32,000 nucleotides of DNA. It comes from Candidatus Iainarchaeum sp. Its GTDB lineage: Archaea > Iainarchaeota > Iainarchaeia > Iainarchaeales > GCA-2688035. The notes under the pieces are model-generated. The model saw only the letters and a program-made list of their open reading frames with translations, made no database searches and had not been told where the DNA came from. The translations under genes and the position numbers were made by a program. Positions 2,825 to 30,120 of this stretch are shown here, piece by piece. Each line of letters starts with the position of its first letter. The first letter of the stretch is position 1. The stretch lies in NCBI GenBank assembly GCA_028713935.1, contig JAQTNI010000001.1:1-32000 (forward strand). The letters run 5' to 3'.

Positions 2825-2854
2825 TTTTTAACAAATTTGGATTAGGTTTTTTTT

Positions 2855-3295
2855 ATGTTGTTTCCGGTTCGCACAACTGTTGGGCAAGAAAGCCTTGTAG
2901 TTGACATTTTGAGCCAAAAAATCAAGGTTGATGCCCTGCCTGTTTACAGCATTGCAGTCATTCCAGGCCTCAAAGGGTATATCCTTATTGAAGCTCAGGA
3001 TGAATTGAATGTAAGAAATGCAATTGCAGGCGCCCCCCACATCAAGGGCCAGGGAATTGTAAAAGGCTCTGTTGACATCAAGGAAATAGGTGTTTTGCTG
3101 GAATCAAAGCCCTTAATGAAATCCATTAAGGAACATGATAAAATTGAAATTATTTCCGGCGCTTTCAAGGGAGAAAAAGCAAGAGTAATGCGCGTAAATG
3201 ACGCAAAAGAAGAAGTTGTTGTAGAGCTTTTAGAAGCGGCAGTGAAAATTCCCGTTACATTAAAAGCGGAAAACATAAGGGTCTTAAAAGAATAA
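2855..3295 (+). CDS. spt5: transcription elongation factor Spt5 (NusG)
   Basis: NGN-type N-terminus (VYSIAVIPGLKGYILIEAQ) and a KOW motif (IEIISGAFKGEKARVMRV). The position upstream of L11 is conserved. Confidence 0.9.
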   Translation: MLFPVRTTVGQESLVVDILSQKIKVDALPVYSIAVIPGLKGYILIEAQDELNVRNAIAGAPHIKGQGIVKGSVDIKEIGVLLESKPLMKSIKEHDKIEIISGAFKGEKARVMRVNDAKEEVVVELLEAAVKIPVTLKAENIRVLKE

Positions 3296-4221: not shown

Positions 4222-4404
4222 AAAATCACCGGATAGATAATTATTGCCTAAGTTTTTAAGCTTTTCCGATTACTTTTTGTGTATATTAATTGGTTTTGTA
4301 AGTCTCTTTTTGAGACCGCAACTACCGCTTTTGGGATTGTTCAATTTGCACCTTGCAAATTGTTTCTTTTCCAACCTTTTTAAGGGCAGAATTGCTGGGC
4401 AATT

Positions 4405-4462
4405 GCGTTTTTCCTTGAAAAACGCTTCTTTTCCCGAGGCTTTTCTTTCCAAGAAAAGGCTC
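4405..4462 (+). repeat. double-hairpin element, copy C (in the L1 leader)
   Basis: Hairpin 1 is GCGTTTTT-ccttg-AAAAACGC (4405-4425). The linker is TTCTTTTCCC (4426-4435). Hairpin 2 is GAGGCTTTTCTT-tcc-AAGAAAAGGCTC (4436-4462), with one G-G mismatch (4439/4459). The architecture matches the copies at 26278 and 26548. Confidence 0.7.
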
Positions 4463-4479
4463 TGCGGGAGGTTTTTTGA

Positions 4480-6264: not shown

Positions 6265-6390
6265 AGCCTTCTCTTTTTTTTATTTTTTAAAAATGCCTTG
6301 TTTTTCCCACATTGCAAAAGCATTTGCTTTTGCGATGCGTCACAAAGCCCTGCTTTGCAACGAGGCTTTTGAAAGCGAGCATTGCGAAGC

Positions 6391-6426
6391 ATTTTTCCCA
6401 AGGCTTTTTGCCTTGCAAAAAGGCTT
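6391..6426 (+). repeat. degenerate copy D of the hairpin-2 module
   Basis: The linker-like ATTTTTCCC (6391-6399) is followed by AAGGCTTTTTGC-ctt-GCAAAAAGGCTT (6400-6426). This has the same 3 bp + G-G mismatch + 8 bp layout as copy C, but with a compensated stem sequence. Confidence 0.5.
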
Positions 6427-6736
6427 TTGCGAGCGCTTCAAAAGGCTTTTGCCTAATTTTAAATATTTAAACCAGCCTTAATTTTCACGCGTTACCAGGT
6501 TAAATATTGGCTTTTATATTCCAGAGGCAATAATTATTTTGGCATTGGTTTTTTTCAGGCTCACCGAAAAAAACATTGTACTCAGGCAACTGGAGGTGGT
6601 TGGTAGCGTTTCAGCGGCAACCATTTTTTGCGATTGTTTGATTGACTAATGCCAGCTGCAGGGGAAATTGCTTCCTTGTTTTGGAACGTCCTTCCCAGGC
6701 GAAACTGGTTTAATCTCTGTATGAGAAATAGTCTCC

Positions 6737-25715: not shown

Positions 25716-26207
25716 TTATTGGCTTTTTTTGCCTTGTTGCAGTTCCCATGGAAAAATAATCCAGTTTTCCGTTGTCTTGTAATAATGCACTTTTTGCCTT
25801 GATTGCAGTGAAGAATTTTTGTTTTTGTAATAAATCACTGCAATGTCAATTGTTTTGAGACCTGGAATCAGGGCTTTTGCATTAATGCTGCCAATAATTT
25901 GTTCCATTGTTTTTCCTTCATCAACCAAGTCATCAACAAGCAGTATTTTTTTTGGCTCTGCATTTTCACAGCACCATTTGACATTGGCATCAAAAAAGCT
26001 TTTTTTATCAGGGCAATTGTTTTTGTTATAGCGCTTGGAAACAACAATTCCCAGGGGAAGCTGCAGCAATTCGCTTAACAGTTTTCCCGGAACAAGGCCG
26101 CCTGATGCAATGCAGACAACTGCCTCATAATTGTTTTTTTCAAGTTTTTTTGCCAGATGCCTGCAGGCGGTTTCAATTTCTTTCCAGCTGACTTTAATTG
26201 TGCCCAT
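25716..26207 (-). CDS. purine phosphoribosyltransferase (xanthine-guanine/hypoxanthine PRT-like)
   Basis: VVCIASGGLVPGKLLSE, the PRPP-binding motif KILLVDDLVDEGKTM and a WIIFPWE C-terminus are present. Confidence 0.8.
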   Translation of the reverse strand: MGTIKVSWKEIETACRHLAKKLEKNNYEAVVCIASGGLVPGKLLSELLQLPLGIVVSKRYNKNNCPDKKSFFDANVKWCCENAEPKKILLVDDLVDEGKTMEQIIGSINAKALIPGLKTIDIAVIYYKNKNSSLQSRQKVHYYKTTENWIIFPWELQQGKKSQ

Positions 26208-26277
26208 TGCAAAACACTTGAGCTATTGTTTCAATGTTTCTCTGCTTGACATCGTGCCAGGGCTTTTGCCGAAGGCT

Positions 26278-26331
26278 AGACTTGCGAAGCAAGTCTTTCT
26301 TTCCCTGGGCTTTCTTTTTAAGAAAGGCCAG
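26278..26331 (+). repeat. double-hairpin element, copy A (abuts the tRNA-Trp 3' end)
   Basis: Hairpin 1 is AGACTTGC-gaa-GCAAGTCT (26278-26296). The linker is TTCTTTCCC (26297-26305). Hairpin 2 is CTGGGCTTTCTT-ttt-AAGAAAGGCCAG (26305-26331), with a G-G mismatch at 26309/26327. Confidence 0.7.
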
Positions 26332-26509
26332 TGGGGTTACAGGGATTTGAACCCTGATCAACTGGTCGCTCATTATTTTACCCTGCCTTTTTGTTGTTTA
26401 CCAAAGAAAAATGGTTCTTTTCTTTGGGCAACTTACACTTTCTTTTCTTGCCAAGAAAAGAAAGGGCAGGTCTGGAGCCAGTCGCACTGCCTGGTTATGC
26501 TATAACCCC
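26332..26509 (-). tRNA. tRNA-Trp (anticodon CCA) with a 105-nt intron at the canonical 37/38 position
   Basis: The 5' exon is GGGGTTA-TA-GCAT-AACCAGGCA-GTGC-G-ACTGG-CTCCAG (26509-26472). The 3' exon is A-CCAGT-TGAT-CAGGG-TTCAAAT-CCCTG-TAACCCC-A (26366-26332). The acceptor, anticodon and T stems are perfectly paired and the D stem has one T-G wobble. The mature tRNA is 73 nt. No CCA is encoded. Confidence 0.88.
26367..26471 (-). other. tRNA-Trp intron (105 nt), highly structured
   Basis: A closing stem CCTGCC/GGCAGG encloses two perfect hairpins on the minus strand: CTTTCTTTTCTTG/CAAGAAAAGAAAG and CCAAAGAAAA-gaaccat-TTTTCTTTGG. GACC is repeated at both junctions, so the exact cut sites are ambiguous by 1-2 nt. 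Confidence 0.75.
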
Positions 26510-26547
26510 GTTGGGATAATTGAAGAATTTAAAGTTTTTAAAATCAG

Positions 26548-26605
26548 AGGTTTTGCATTGCAAAACCTTTCTTTCCCAGGGCTTTCTTTTTTAAAGAAAG
26601 GCCTG
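26548..26605 (+). repeat. double-hairpin element, copy B (upstream of the tRNA-Trp promoter region)
   Basis: Hairpin 1 is AGGTTTTGC-att-GCAAAACCT (26548-26568). The linker is TTCTTTCCC (26569-26577). Hairpin 2 is CAGGGCTTTCTTT-ttt-AAAGAAAGGCCTG (26577-26605), with a G-G mismatch at 26581/26601. Confidence 0.7.
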
Positions 26606-26695
26606 CCAAAGTAGCTCACTTGTTGAGTGCATAAAACAACTTTGTTTTGTTGTGTTTTTAAAGATATGGAATTTTTTATTTTTCAAATCCGTCAA

Positions 26696-26706
26696 TTTAA
26701 TATATT
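26696..26706 (+). promoter_or_regulatory. TATA-box-like element for the HerA-like gene
   Basis: TTTAATATATT is centred about 27 nt upstream of the GTG at 26728. This spacing fits an archaeal TATA box driving a leaderless or near-leaderless mRNA. Confidence 0.35.
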
Positions 26707-26727
26707 CTAATTGCGCTACTATTACTG

Positions 26728-29700
26728 GTGTTTGTTTTGGCTGACAAAAAAGGTTCTTCGGAAGCTGGAGAAGAGATTTTTTCAGATGTTTTTGGCGTTG
26801 ACGAGGATGAAAAGCGCGCCAGGGAAAGGCTTGCCAAGGAAACAGCTGAAAAAGAAGCAAAGCAAAAAGCCTCAAAAGGCGAGAAAGAGGAAAAAGAATT
26901 GCCTTCTGAAAAAGAAGAGCCTGAAATTGTTGCCTTGAAGAAAACCCAAAAAAAGCCTGCCCAAAAAATTCCAGTTGAGGCCAAAGCCACTGTTACTGAT
27001 TCTCCCGAGCAAAAGGAATTGAAGCAGAAAATCAAAAAGGTTATTCTGGCAAAGGCAGCAAAGGCCGCTGAAAAGGATTCTGCAAAAATTTTTGACAAGG
27101 AAATTGACATCAAGGAAAAAGGAGTTAAGGAAAAAGAAAAAGAAGAAGAGCCAGAGCCTGAAGAAGAAAACGAAAAAGAAGATTCAAAAGAAATTGTGCC
27201 AAAATTTGCCCTTAATTTTTTGCAGGATTCAGAAGGAAGCGTTTTCATTGGCAGGAAAACAAGTGTTTTCCAGGAATATGGCAATGAAGCAGGCCTGTAT
27301 ATTGGGAATATTGCAGAGCCTTCCTTTGAAGGAAAAAAAGTTTTATTGGATGGTTTAAATCCGCATGTTGTTTTTGTCTGCGGGGCAAGAGGCAGCGGAA
27401 AATGCCTTACTGGAGACACTCTAATTGCGCTTGAAGATGGTACAGTAAAGCCGATAAGAGAACTGGAACATGATAATCAAAAAGTTCTTTCAATGGATTC
27501 TGAAATGAAAATTGTTGCCACTCAAAAAAGCGGTTTTTTTAAAAGGAGAGTAAATAAGATTCTGGAAGTTAACTTAAAAAGTGGCAAAAAGATTAGGTTG
27601 ACCCCTGAGCATCCTTTGTTTACAATGCAAGGCTGGAAGCCTGCGCAGGAGTTGAGAGAAGGAAGCAGAATTGCTGCTGTTAATAAACAGGTTGGGCTTG
27701 GTTTTTCAAGTAGCAGGCAGGAAAGCGTTTGTTATTCTGCCGCAAGGGCAAAATTAATGCAAATTAATTTGCTTAACAAGGATGAGTTGGTGCAAAATGC
27801 TTCTTCAAATATTTTTTGGGACGAAATAACTGAAAAAACAGAATTATCAGGAGAATTTGAAGTTTTTGATATCAGTGTTCCAACACACCACAATTTTGTT
27901 GCAAATGATATTATTGTCCACAACAGTTATCTGCTTGGAGTGCTTGCTGAAGAGCTTGCCTTGAAGAATCCCAATGTCGGCCTTATTGTAATCGACCCTG
28001 TAGGGGTTTTTTGGGGAATGAGGCATCCTAACAAGGAAGAAAAAGAGCTTGAGGCTCTTGCAAAAACAGGCCTTCTTCCGAACGGCCTGAATAATCTCAA
28101 AGTTTTTATTCCAAAGGGAATGAAGGACAAGGTTCCGAAAAACACTTTTGATGCGGCTTTCAGCATGCCTGCTTCTCTTCTAACTGCAGAAGACTGGTGC
28201 CTAACTTTTGGCATTGACAGGTTTTCCCCAAGCGGCCTGCTCCTTGAAAAAGTTTTGCACAAGACAAAGCACGGCTATAAGACAAAAGAAGGAAAATATG
28301 TAAAATCAGAGGATGTTTTTGATTTGGAGGACATTATTGAATGCCTGCATAATGACAATGAAATAAATTCAGCCGAGCTTGGCTATAAGGCCGATTCAAT
28401 AAGGGCCCTTGCTTCCAGGTTTGATGCCGCAAAAGCCTGGGGAGTTTTTGATGAAAGAGGAACTCCTTTGATTGAAATTTCAAAGGAAAACCAGTTGACA
28501 ATTATTGACACTTCTTTTTTGGATGACAATGTTTCCGCGCTAATAATCGGGATTCTTGCAAGAAGAATTCTTGCCGCGAGAAAATTAAGCACTCGCAGGG
28601 AAGCTGCTTCAAAATTCAAGGATGATTCTGTTGAAAACCTAATGGAATTGGGAATCCCTCCCACATGGCTGTTTATTGATGAGGCACACACTTTGATTCC
28701 AAGCGGAAACATGAAAACTCCTGCAAGCAGTGCCCTTGTTGAATATGTGAAGCAGGGAAGGCAGCCTGGCTGCAGCCTTGTTTTTGCAACACAGCAGCCG
28801 AGCGCAATTGACACCCATGTTTTAAGCCAGCTTGACATTATTGTGGCGCACAAGCTTGTTTTTGACGATGACATAAAGGCAGTTTACAAGAGAACTCCAA
28901 CTATTATTCCAAAGCAATACAAGAACAGCAATTTTATCAAAACACTGCCAGTTGGAATGGGAATTGTTGGAGATAGAAGAGAAGAAACCTCGCGCGCTTT
29001 TGTAATGAAAATCAGGCCAAGAATGTCACAGCACGAAGGCAGGGAAGCAGTTACTTCTGAAAGGTCTTCACAGGTTTTTGACAAATCCAAGGTTCTTGCC
29101 CTTGCAATTGGAATGGCTTATGCCCAGATTGAAAGAAAGCCGACAGAAGCCTCTTACATTAGCCAGATTGTCCAGACTCTTAATACAAAATACAAGTCAA
29201 CTTTGCAGCTTTCAGATGTTCTTGATGCGCTTGAAAAAAAAGGCGTCGGAATCAATCCCAAAACTTCTGTTTTAAGCATTCCGGACGAGGAAGCAGAGCA
29301 TGAAGTAGTGGAAGAAGAAGTCCGTGAAACAGAAGAAGAAGTGCAAAAAGAAGTGAAATCAGTTTCACCAGAAGAAAGCATTTCACTAATGGCTTTTCCA
29401 GCCAATCTTCAGGAAGAATCAGCAAGAAGGCTTTTTGACAGGCTGAGAAAGAAAAAAACTCTCGGCTTGTTTGGAAAAGAAGAGCTGATTGAAAAAATTT
29501 CCTTGAAATATTTGCCAATTTTCCATGTTACTTTCAATGTTTTCAATGAAAAAGGCTCTTTCAATATTGCAGAGGCCTATGTTGATTCCCATTCAGGGGA
29601 ATTTTTGAATTTTGATTTTGAACAAAAACAATTTGTTGAATCCCACGGCTTAAGCCTGCTTTCGGAAATGGGCACTTTGGAATCAAGAATCCTGCTTTTG

Positions 29701-30120
29701 CTTTCCGAAAAAAAATCCTCTTTTGAAGACCTTCAAAACAGGCTTGGAGAAGAAGAAAAAAGCATTGAAAAGGCAATTGATTCGCTTATGGAAGCAAATG
29801 CAATTGCGCTTGAACAGTCAAAAGAAAAAGACTGGTTTTTTTTGAAAACAAAAATTGATTTGCCAAAAAGCCCCTTGCATTCCCTGCTTACAAGCGTGAA
29901 AAAACTGCCAGTGGAAGAAATTTCCGCTTCCAATCTTGAAAAGCCGCAGTTTGACAAAACAAAATTCCAGGAGGTTTTTTCAAAAATCTGGGGAAAAGTC
30001 CAGATAAAAAGCATTTCAGAAGTTTTTTTGCCAAGATATGAGGCAATTATCAGGAAACAGGACAATTCAATAAGGGCAATTTCAGTTGACGCCTACTCAG
30101 GAAAAGAAATTGCGGACTAA
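26728..30120 (+). CDS. HerA/DUF87-type P-loop ATPase (FtsK-HerA superfamily) with an intein, a disordered N-terminal region and a long C-terminal extension
   Basis: After intein removal the Walker A reads VFVCGARGSGK|SYLLGVLAEEL. Walker B is WLFIDEAHTLIP, and VFATQQPSAIDTHVLSQLDIIVAHKL is present. Residues 25-160 are Lys/Glu-rich low complexity. Residues 775-1130 match no family I recognise. Confidence 0.8.
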   Translation: MFVLADKKGSSEAGEEIFSDVFGVDEDEKRARERLAKETAEKEAKQKASKGEKEEKELPSEKEEPEIVALKKTQKKPAQKIPVEAKATVTDSPEQKELKQKIKKVILAKAAKAAEKDSAKIFDKEIDIKEKGVKEKEKEEEPEPEEENEKEDSKEIVPKFALNFLQDSEGSVFIGRKTSVFQEYGNEAGLYIGNIAEPSFEGKKVLLDGLNPHVVFVCGARGSGKCLTGDTLIALEDGTVKPIRELEHDNQKVLSMDSEMKIVATQKSGFFKRRVNKILEVNLKSGKKIRLTPEHPLFTMQGWKPAQELREGSRIAAVNKQVGLGFSSSRQESVCYSAARAKLMQINLLNKDELVQNASSNIFWDEITEKTELSGEFEVFDISVPTHHNFVANDIIVHNSYLLGVLAEELALKNPNVGLIVIDPVGVFWGMRHPNKEEKELEALAKTGLLPNGLNNLKVFIPKGMKDKVPKNTFDAAFSMPASLLTAEDWCLTFGIDRFSPSGLLLEKVLHKTKHGYKTKEGKYVKSEDVFDLEDIIECLHNDNEINSAELGYKADSIRALASRFDAAKAWGVFDERGTPLIEISKENQLTIIDTSFLDDNVSALIIGILARRILAARKLSTRREAASKFKDDSVENLMELGIPPTWLFIDEAHTLIPSGNMKTPASSALVEYVKQGRQPGCSLVFATQQPSAIDTHVLSQLDIIVAHKLVFDDDIKAVYKRTPTIIPKQYKNSNFIKTLPVGMGIVGDRREETSRAFVMKIRPRMSQHEGREAVTSERSSQVFDKSKVLALAIGMAYAQIERKPTEASYISQIVQTLNTKYKSTLQLSDVLDALEKKGVGINPKTSVLSIPDEEAEHEVVEEEVRETEEEVQKEVKSVSPEESISLMAFPANLQEESARRLFDRLRKKKTLGLFGKEELIEKISLKYLPIFHVTFNVFNEKGSFNIAEAYVDSHSGEFLNFDFEQKQFVESHGLSLLSEMGTLESRILLLLSEKKSSFEDLQNRLGEEEKSIEKAIDSLMEANAIALEQSKEKDWFFLKTKIDLPKSPLHSLLTSVKKLPVEEISASNLEKPQFDKTKFQEVFSKIWGKVQIKSISEVFLPRYEAIIRKQDNSIRAISVDAYSGKEIAD
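27403..27924 (+). mobile_element. mini-intein (174 aa) inserted in the Walker A loop
   Basis: Begins CLTGDTLIAL (block A). Block B is RLTPEHPLFT. Block F is FEVFDISVPTHHNFVA. Ends DIIVHN, followed by a +1 Ser (block G). There is no room for a LAGLIDADG or HNH endonuclease domain. Excision restores GSGKS. Confidence 0.88.

Follow-up and report, generated by a model that had tools for sequence, protein, structure and literature searches.

A lineage-specific two-hairpin repeat family in tRNA introns and at tRNA ends of DPANN archaea

For the bulge-helix-bulge (BHB) tRNA introns of the Thermoproteales, PMC4090602 speaks of 'intron transposition' (Fujishima et al. 2010, cited there). Intron positions in the T-loop and the D-arm are known for DPANN archaea and Crenarchaeota, and the splicing endonucleases of DPANN archaea are of broad specificity (PMC3239211, PMC5829648). 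Similar introns in many tRNA genes, and at non-canonical positions, have to be counted as already known in DPANN. What is found neither in Rfam nor in the searchable literature is the repeat family described here, its occupation of the tRNA-Trp trailer and, above all, a covariation that joins the two arms of a hairpin to a neighbouring linker.

The window, a stretch of 32,000 nt from a Candidatus Iainarchaeum genome, contains a tRNA-Trp gene that a preliminary description, made from the sequence alone, had reported to lie between two copies of a double-hairpin element. Both copies were found where they had been placed, on one strand and with the reported succession of hairpin 1, linker and hairpin 2. 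Copy A (26278–26331, + strand) consists of hairpin 1 (AGACTTGC GAA GCAAGTCT, 26278–26296), a pyrimidine linker that mirrors the 5′ arm of hairpin 2 (TTCTTTCCC, 26297–26305) and hairpin 2 with a G.G mismatch (CTGGGCTTTCTT TTT AAGAAAGGCCAG, 26305–26331). Copy B (26548–26605, + strand) is built in the same way from hairpin 1 (AGGTTTTGCA T TGCAAAACCT, 26548–26568), the linker TTCTTTCCC (26569–26577) and hairpin 2, again with a G.G mismatch (CAGGGCTTTCTTT TTT AAAGAAAGGCCTG, 26577–26605). As claimed, the linker is identical in the two copies, the hairpin 1 sequences are unrelated (AGACTTGC/GCAAGTCT versus AGGTTTTGCA/TGCAAAACCT) and the mismatch is present in both; the two hairpins 2 share the core GGGCTTTCTT...AAGAAAGGCC, and reading of the sequence bears out a compensated change of the closing pair, T-A in copy A and A-T in copy B. 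Chance does not explain these copies, with 0.07 matches expected and two found for a pattern of linker plus 5′ arm, and 0.01 matches expected for the hairpin 2 pattern. With covariance model R1, introduced below, copy A scores 59.5 bits (span 26271–26331) and copy B 68.6 bits (span 26543–26605). A mini-hairpin, GCC-GAA-GGC, precedes copy A at 26268–26276 (+ strand) and reads GCCUUCGGC, with a UUCG loop, in the tRNA sense; the same motif accompanies several members of the family and lies 5′ of hairpin 1 in loci L003, L032 and L049.

The tRNA-Trp(CCA) gene occupies 26332–26509 on the − strand, with exon 1 at 26509–26472, a 105-nt intron at 26471–26367 and exon 2 at 26366–26332. Neither default ARAGORN nor Rfam gathering runs detected it in the window, and it was recovered only with a sensitive, E-value-mode Rfam scan (48.8 bits) and with ARAGORN allowing introns. 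Its intron is made up of repeats of a second, related family, in which the spacer is GGGCAACTTACAC. Copy A had been described as ending one nucleotide from the discriminator base (26332); the gap is 0–1 nt, and hairpin 2 abuts the discriminator directly once the C-G pair is counted. On the other side, an AT-rich spacer with TATA-like boxes (TTTAAA / TTTTAAAAAC; 26510–26547, − strand) is presumed, on a reading of the sequence, to be the promoter of tRNA-Trp; L003 and L054 have it conserved. Copy B follows beyond it and lies, as reported, about 120 nt before a HerA-like gene, which contains an intein. Neither copy interrupts a tRNA gene, A being in the 3′ trailer and B upstream of the promoter.

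Several other readings of the locus were discarded. The + strand segment that starts at 26606 (GCCAAAGTAGCTCAC...), 3′ of copy B, gave no tRNA signal in E-value-mode Rfam scans that would mark a second tRNA or a split-tRNA half, and is poorly conserved in L003. A leader-trailer processing stem pairing B′ with A′ is contradicted by the copies being direct rather than inverted repeats, and is further disfavoured by the compensated closing pair, which favours pairing within the hairpin. No C/D boxes were seen and no Rfam match was obtained that would indicate a box C/D guide RNA in the element or the intron. The loop of hairpin 2 varies (TTG, TCC, GCTTGC), against its use as a TATA box, and pairing of the linker with a purine tract 5′ of hairpin 1 appeared in only a few RNAfold predictions, inconsistently between copies.

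A third copy, alluded to in the preliminary description, proved to be copy C at 4405–4462 (+ strand). It belongs to a variant class, with hairpin 1 GCGTTTTTC CTT GAAAAACGC, linker TTCTTTTCCC and hairpin 2 GAGGCTTTTCTT TCC AAGAAAAGGCTC, scores 60.0 bits with R1 (span 4401–4463) and ends about 5 nt before the Shine-Dalgarno sequence of the rpL1-L10 operon. A decayed copy at 6367–6427 (+ strand; TTTTTCCC AA GGCTTTTTGC CTT GCAAAAAGGC) reaches 28.4 bits and retains both the G.G mismatch and the mirrored linker.

Beyond the window, prokaryotic genomes, one per species, were searched for exact matches to the hairpin 2 pattern. This yielded 51 loci, about 25 of which come from DPANN MAGs labelled Candidatus Iainarchaeum/"ainarchaeum", Micrarchaeota/Micrarchaeia or "archaeon". 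Nearly all of these archaeal matches carry the whole architecture 5′ of hairpin 2, although hairpin 2 alone was the query. An alignment of 35 copies (A1) served as the basis of covariance model R1, which was run over the window and 53 loci with 40 bits as the line for a full-length match. A covariance-model scan was the check that the preliminary description had proposed, and it revealed many copies in addition to those of the window: 41 full-length matches above 40 bits, all archaeal, in 13 DPANN MAGs of the Iainarchaeia and Micrarchaeia. There are several copies per MAG, often at contig ends. Among about 25 bacterial control loci no full-length match exceeded 40 bits; their matches cover the hairpin 2 part only, at 20–35 bits, as expected of chance terminator-like palindromes. 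The partial exceptions, L050 (35.8 bits over the full model length) and L035 (34.3 bits, hairpin 2 part), both lie below 40 bits and look like chance as well. A collection of viral contigs gave no family match, and a viral origin was discarded on this result. In Rfam 15 only tRNA was matched at gathering, and in E-value mode nothing else over 26150–26800 rose above 19 bits against cut-offs of at least 42. No description of the family was found in the searchable literature. The repeat family is previously undescribed and specific to a DPANN lineage, comprising the Iainarchaeia and some Micrarchaeia.

Read on the + strand of the window, the unit is about 55–65 nt long and runs from hairpin 1 through a pyrimidine linker and a CC-N-GG turn to hairpin 2, whose stem pairs a polypyrimidine with a polypurine strand and has a single G.G mismatch close to the base. 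The stem of hairpin 1 is free in sequence, its apex frequently TTGC-N3-GCAA. Some members form tandem arrays, with a period of 51 in L010 and L045 and of 85 in L003, and the copies of L020 and L049 are flanked by direct repeats of 35–37 nt, in which a gene start or a tRNA start is duplicated; assembly contigs break inside the element. In contrast to a MITE, the palindromes are internal and the two ends unrelated, and neither terminal inverted repeats nor a regular short target duplication was seen. No transposase, reverse transcriptase, RAYT or other mobility gene adjoins the copies in the 8-kb MAG loci examined.

The covariation of both hairpins is genuine. In hairpin 2, all 350 cells in the 35 aligned sequences are standard pairs and five of the ten pairs change on both sides; the core pairs are partly imposed by selection of the sequences, while the closing pair, which was in no search pattern, is A-U in 23 copies, C-G in five, U-A in five and G-C in two, and is never unpaired. 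A hairpin 1 stem of at least 6 bp ending at the linker is present in 30 of the 41 copies, compared with 9% of random 32-nt windows from the same loci, and nearly all of these stems differ in sequence between copies. The G.G mismatch is kept in essentially all copies, variants included. At the locus orthologous to ours, L003, hairpin 1 of copy A reads AGGCTTGC ACA GCAAGCCT, with a compensated change from A-T to G-C. The pairing of hairpin 2, the recurrence of hairpin 1 and this compensated change together uphold the earlier proposal of selection on a fold as opposed to chance low complexity. Nor are copies A and B parts of one larger duplicated segment, their hairpin 1 sequences being unrelated.

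About 25 of the 41 copies make up the body of a tRNA intron, whether at the canonical position, in the T-loop or in the D-arm, and inspection of the flanks showed that the sequence beside hairpin 2 nearly always matches, as its reverse complement, the 5′ part of a tRNA. ARAGORN allowing introns placed family copies in canonical introns of tRNAs for Trp (L009), Ser (L016 twice, L049, L029), Cys (L018), Pro (L028 twice, L048), Leu (L032), Gly (L034) and Arg (L041), and flank reading added a copy in a tRNA-Pro-like gene (L014). By flank reading, too, T-loop interruptions after GTTCAAA were identified in L012, L024, L036, L039 (twice), L040 and L021, and D-arm interruptions in L052 (twice), L040 and L027. 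One module is found at position 37/38 in at least seven isoacceptor types and at T-loop and D-arm positions besides, the distribution looked for in a transposed intron. Orientation is fixed, with hairpin 2 first in the tRNA sense; in intronic copies hairpin 2 starts 1–2 nt past the 5′ splice site, with GGCC at intron nucleotide 2–3. Outside introns, copies occupy 3′ trailers (copy A of the window, L003, L016, L032), lie in inverse orientation directly against the 5′ end of tRNA-Gln (L033, L051) or stand just 5′ of the Shine-Dalgarno sequence of a protein gene, as do copy C and L003:3654, the latter before an unrelated membrane protein gene. In every class of location hairpin 2 faces the adjoining exon or gene. 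Hairpin 2 of copy B points to the HerA-like gene and matches the 5′-side rule for that gene, not for the tRNA.

Drawn by hand, a strict 3-4-3 BHB is available for the introns of L028 tRNA-Pro(UGG) and L048 tRNA-Pro, in which nucleotides 32–35 pair with the intron tail and both 3-nt bulges form. The outer helix of these motifs is made of the first nucleotides of the element and the tail, and competes with the base of hairpin 2. The introns of L009 tRNA-Trp and of the window's tRNA-Trp allow a relaxed BHB with three of four pairs in the central helix (also by hand), and at copy A only a helix, 1–3 nt of single strand and a hairpin could be drawn, with no second bulge.

Comparison of related genomes separates copy A from copy B. 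The L003 locus, from Ca. "ainarchaeum" STB_123, is orthologous to that of the window and roughly 90–95% identical across the region. It holds both copies, and its tRNA-Trp is without an intron, the deletion being exact. Three further tRNA-Trp loci (L054, L055, L056) were taken from metagenomes with a pattern for exon 1 only, giving, with the window, L003 and L009, a comparison of six. In all six, a pyrimidine/purine hairpin element occupies the 3′ trailer 1–3 nt past A73. Five of these elements are family-1 variants of differing sequence classes and that of L009 is from the second family; with R1 the trailers of L054 and L056 score 46–48 bits, and that of L055, at only 15.7 bits, was assigned to family 1 by its architecture. 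Most other tRNAs at these loci have plain trailers. Since the trailer element accompanies tRNA-Trp in six of six loci and most other trailers are plain, copy A is a conserved feature of tRNA-Trp in this clade. The intron, by comparison, is absent from L003, L054 and L055, of the second family in the window and of family 1 in L009 and L056, so that close relatives differ both in its presence and in the family that supplies it. Copy B was found in the window and L003 alone among the six, with just its last 10 nt kept in L054, and is a dispensable, lineage-specific copy.

Our preferred explanation, which we hold at a probability of roughly 45%, is that the family constitutes a mobile, splicing-compatible module of intron type, a DPANN counterpart of the transposed BHB introns of the Thermoproteales. 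Such a module would spread at the DNA level into and beside tRNA genes and would be tolerated because the normal machinery removes its copies: the splicing endonuclease would excise those in introns, and trimming of 3′ and 5′ ends would remove those in trailers and leaders. Hairpin 2 of an intronic copy would sit where the outer helix of the BHB belongs. Copy A would be a trailer-resident member, whose register relative to base 73 matches that of intronic copies relative to base 37, and copy B would be an insertion of its own, into the divergent spacer that separates the tRNA-Trp promoter from the HerA-like gene. Mobility is argued for by the presence or absence of the intron and the swapping of families at one orthologous site, together with the many host tRNAs and positions; we infer it, as we do its mechanism, the trimming away of trailer copies and any advantage for the host. 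We also count in its favour the spread of the family among DPANN MAGs, its residence and register in introns, the BHB geometry of two tRNA-Pro introns and the selection on its structure. The tandem arrays and the 35–37-nt flanking direct repeats speak of duplication, and independent confirmation comes from the tRNA-Trp loci that were retrieved with nothing but an exon pattern and yet have the element (46–48 bits). Against the mobile module we count the lack of a linked mobility gene, of terminal inverted repeats or short target duplications and of any match among viral contigs. The splicing rationale does not apply directly to copies A and B, since both lie outside exons. We count against it, too, the occupation of six of six tRNA-Trp trailers by elements of differing classes while other trailers are mostly plain, a pattern more suggestive of a conserved function in cis, or of a hot spot of very specific insertion, than of random selfish spread.

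A cis-acting role in the 3′ processing of pre-tRNA-Trp is the main rival, and a serious one. On this account the element would be a host RNA end module whose hairpin 2, possibly with the linker as a third strand, defines or protects the end of the adjoining functional RNA; it might position 3′ cleavage of pre-tRNA-Trp, block exonucleases or separate the tRNA from a co-transcribed PRTase mRNA, and the intronic copies would be a by-product or a second use. The start of all six tRNA-Trp trailer elements 1–3 nt past A73 while their sequence class changes points this way, the architecture being conserved at an orthologous site, as do the constant direction of hairpin 2 towards the adjacent exon or gene (in trailers, introns, the 5′ leaders of L033, L051 and L055, and copy C before rpL1) and the absence of an obvious promoter between tRNA-Trp and the PRTase gene 125 nt downstream. 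Yet the trailers of most tRNAs in these genomes are plain, and copy B points away from tRNA-Trp and has been lost for the most part in L054. Introns, too, tolerate the module, which argues against a strong processing or termination signal. A BHB-type cut would moreover leave a cyclic phosphate and, reckoned by hand from hairpin 2, would fall after nucleotide 74 and not 73 in most loci; a splicing-endonuclease cut that sets the 3′ end of tRNA-Trp was rejected on the extra nucleotide that this register leaves. As it stands, we consider the end module a possible but somewhat unlikely explanation of the sequences.

The linker introduces a further consideration. The pyrimidine linker repeats the 5′ arm of the hairpin 2 that follows it as a mirror image, reversed without being complemented, and changes when the arm changes. 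Examples of such arm/linker pairs are CTTTCTT/TTCTTTC, CTTTTTT/TTTTTTC, CTTTTCTT/TTCTTTTC (in copy C and others), TTTTTCTT/TTCTTTTT, CTTTTTCTTT/TTTCTTTTTC, CTTTCTTCTTT/TTTCTTCTTTC and TTTCTCTTTT/TTTTCTCTTT. The mirror match extends over the full length in 36 of 43 copies or, counted by arm class, in 11 of 15; when linkers were permuted among the classes, which are related by descent, the mean was 1.9 full matches and none of 100,000 permutations reached 11 (p < 1e-5). Linker length follows stem length, at 7, 8 or 9 nt, and the second family, in the window's tRNA-Trp intron, has the same mirror relation across a 12–13-nt spacer. A linker that copies the arm directly, and could form an alternative Watson-Crick hairpin, matches over the full length in only one of the 15 classes, as against 11 for the mirror, and was rejected.

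Processes of the replication type yield direct or inverted repeats, not mirror repeats, and a fold-back three-stranded structure is for this reason the simplest physical reading of the linker. A mirror repeat stands beside a Watson-Crick partner strand, which is the signature that a fold-back triple helix would have in sequence. In such a fold the linker would occupy the groove of hairpin 2 and contribute one base triple per stem pair, U.A-U and C+.G-C in the pyrimidine (+) sense or A.A-U/T and G.G-C in the purine (tRNA) sense, and at the conserved G.G mismatch a linker C would take over the Watson-Crick pairing. Extended to the whole family, the proposal is of a natural, conserved fold-back triple helix placed against tRNA exon ends and splice sites in DPANN, where it might mark or protect RNA ends or drive its own spread as a DNA structure; in this broad form we offer it tentatively and think it rather doubtful. 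Three caveats attach to it: the CC-N-GG turn is very short sterically, the transcribed sense of most copies is the purine version, which is unfavourable for RNA, and the sequence classes share descent. Attempts to choose the active strand from G-U wobbles or loop motifs gave no decision.

The mirror relation can also be taken at the DNA level, as a cruciform or H-DNA motif on one strand that would be a target of a recombinase, chromatin or replication protein, or a hot spot of recombination and duplication, with RNA structure incidental. A linker that is a mirror repeat of a hairpin arm is the H-DNA signature; hairpin 1 frequently has C-G-closed GNA triloops on the + strand, which form the stable DNA hairpin of the d(GCGAAGC) type; the tandem arrays, and the long duplications on the flanks of some copies, point to slippage or template switching at the element; and assembly contigs break within it. 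It is nevertheless easier to understand at the RNA level why the element keeps one register to splice sites and tRNA ends and one orientation to the transcribed strand, arms of 7–11 nt are short for H-DNA, and the mini-hairpin in the tRNA sense is a classic RNA tetraloop, so that we judge a purely DNA-level motif improbable. Ordinary hairpin/oligo-T terminators or chance low-complexity palindromes are effectively excluded even though hairpin 2 alone matches many terminator-like bacterial sites and has T5–T6 runs on the + strand, because the copies would make poor oligo-T terminators when read in the tRNA sense (copy A has no U runs beyond U3 and U2, where at least five are usual), transcription has to pass through the same module where it lies in an intron, no + strand gene lies upstream of A, B or C to be terminated, and the full architecture, with its covariation, is confined to DPANN.

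The family provides a compact, recognisable unit that can be followed through several intron positions, tRNA ends, mRNA leaders and tandem arrays, and the insertion polymorphisms between close relatives make the question testable in DPANN genomes. The module also accounts for standard tRNA finders missing tRNA genes here and for the assembly breaks at these loci. The three-way covariation of arm, arm and linker is a rare comparative-sequence signature and a credible candidate for a categorically new structural feature. Were the triple helix true, it would add a new class of structured nucleic-acid motif to archaeal tRNA biology, and if base triples form, the element would join the very small number of triple helices that are conserved in nature other than in the RNAs of eukaryotes and viruses.

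Among known systems, the transposed introns of the Thermoproteales, as summarised in PMC4090602, resemble the family in their removal at a BHB, which is predicted for intronic copies here, in their presence or absence between close relatives and in a presumably DNA-level spread. They belong to Crenarchaeota, whereas the family described here is found in the DPANN Iainarchaeia and Micrarchaeia; what is shared here is a defined module of two hairpins, a conserved mismatch and a mirrored linker, it occurs also in tRNA trailers and leaders, in mRNA 5′ regions and in tandem arrays, and one of its sites, the tRNA-Trp trailer, is conserved across genomes. With the introns of ARMAN-2 and other Micrarchaeota, at 59/60 and in the D-arm, our family has in common the superphylum, T-loop and other non-canonical sites, a putative relaxed BHB and many disrupted tRNA genes (PMC3239211, PMC5829648). 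The ARMAN-2 introns discussed in these two papers are short (13–25 nt), with no shared structured family reported there, unlike the introns considered here.

The bacterial REP/BIME and prokaryotic MITE-like repeats are similarly short, multi-copy, hairpin-forming and non-coding, lie in untranslated regions, are sometimes in tandem and show compensatory evolution. The element described here differs from them in being without terminal inverted repeats, a short regular target duplication or a linked RAYT or transposase (in the 8-kb loci), and in its strong targeting to tRNA introns and ends, with fixed orientation to the adjacent RNA. The putative fold-back geometry would resemble H-DNA and the ENE+A of MALAT1/MEN-beta in its pyrimidine third strand, pyrimidine Watson-Crick strand and purine strand and in its mirror symmetry. 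It would differ in that the third strand joins at the base of the helix through CC-N-GG only, in arms of just 7–11 nt and in a transcribed sense that is mostly the purine version, the one less suited to RNA. The MALAT1/MEN-beta ENE+A triple helix ends at the RNase P site before a tRNA-like structure, and the leader-type copies of L033 and L051 are comparable in that their purine arm ends exactly at the 5′ end of the tRNA, the would-be RNase P site.

Two copies of the structured element (hairpin 1, pyrimidine linker and hairpin 2 with its G.G mismatch) lie between direct repeats of 35-37 nt, one at positions 2960-3110 of locus L020 and the other at 2850-3000 of locus L049. One of the flanking repeats is a duplicate of the start of a small CxxC protein gene, covering its Shine-Dalgarno sequence and its first 9 codons, and the other is a duplicate of a tRNA-Ser 5' end. 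These direct repeats could be the footprint of an insertion or duplication mechanism.

The element also occurs in tandem. At the orthologous tRNA-Trp locus of Ca. "ainarchaeum" STB_123 (L003, 2900-3115, viewed on the minus strand) we observed two and a half units of 85 nt. In each unit the motif GTTGTGTTTTTAAAGCTAT, which resembles a promoter, precedes a variant of the element (TTCTTTTTCCC GGGTTTTTCTT TTG AAGAAAAAGCC). The window has a single occurrence of this promoter-like motif, located downstream of copy B at about 26643-26660. In the MAG JAGVNX01, head-to-tail arrays with a period of 51 (L010, 1-100; L045, 2615-2715) continue into the contig ends. Within the window, a degenerate extra half-copy (4338-4400, plus strand) lies directly upstream of copy C. 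It starts with a hairpin (CAATTTGC ACC TTGCAAATTG) and the linker TTTCTTTTCC, continues with the remnant sequence CCTTTTTAAGG and includes another hairpin, AATTGCTGGGCAATT, so that about 1.5 copies of the element precede the rpL1-L10 operon in this intergenic region. Two Logan contigs (L001 and L002), independent assemblies of the same organism that are identical to window positions 25716-26207 and flanks, have their breakpoints within copy A or within tRNA-Trp, as would be expected if the repeat misleads assembly software.

Between copies A and B, the 105-nt intron of tRNA-Trp (26367-26471, minus strand) is composed of a second repeat family, in which a long pyrimidine/purine hairpin is followed by UGUAAGUUGCCC and then by a mirrored purine tract (reversed, not complemented). 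At L009 this second family makes up the trailer of tRNA-Trp, and at L014, L049 and L051 it contributes parts of introns or trailers. The tRNA-Trp genes at L003, L054 and L055 lack the window's intron, and the absence is exact. Beyond copy B lies the HerA-like ATPase gene (26728-30120, plus strand), which encodes DUF87 and HerA_C domains. An intein at residues about 223-399, recognised by its Intein_splicing and Hint domains, interrupts it.

On the other side, 125 nt (26208-26331, minus strand) separate the tRNA-Trp 3' end from the start codon (ATG) of a phosphoribosyltransferase gene on the minus strand (25716-26207). This interval shows no evident TATA-like box, and the two genes may be co-transcribed with copy A in between. 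Among the other tRNA-Trp loci, the 5' leaders at L055 and L056 likewise carry a pyrimidine/purine helix, ending 3-5 nt before G1. At L055 this leader helix is preceded by a mirrored pyrimidine tract, and pyrimidine/purine structures occur on both sides of tRNA-Trp in mirror-symmetric order.
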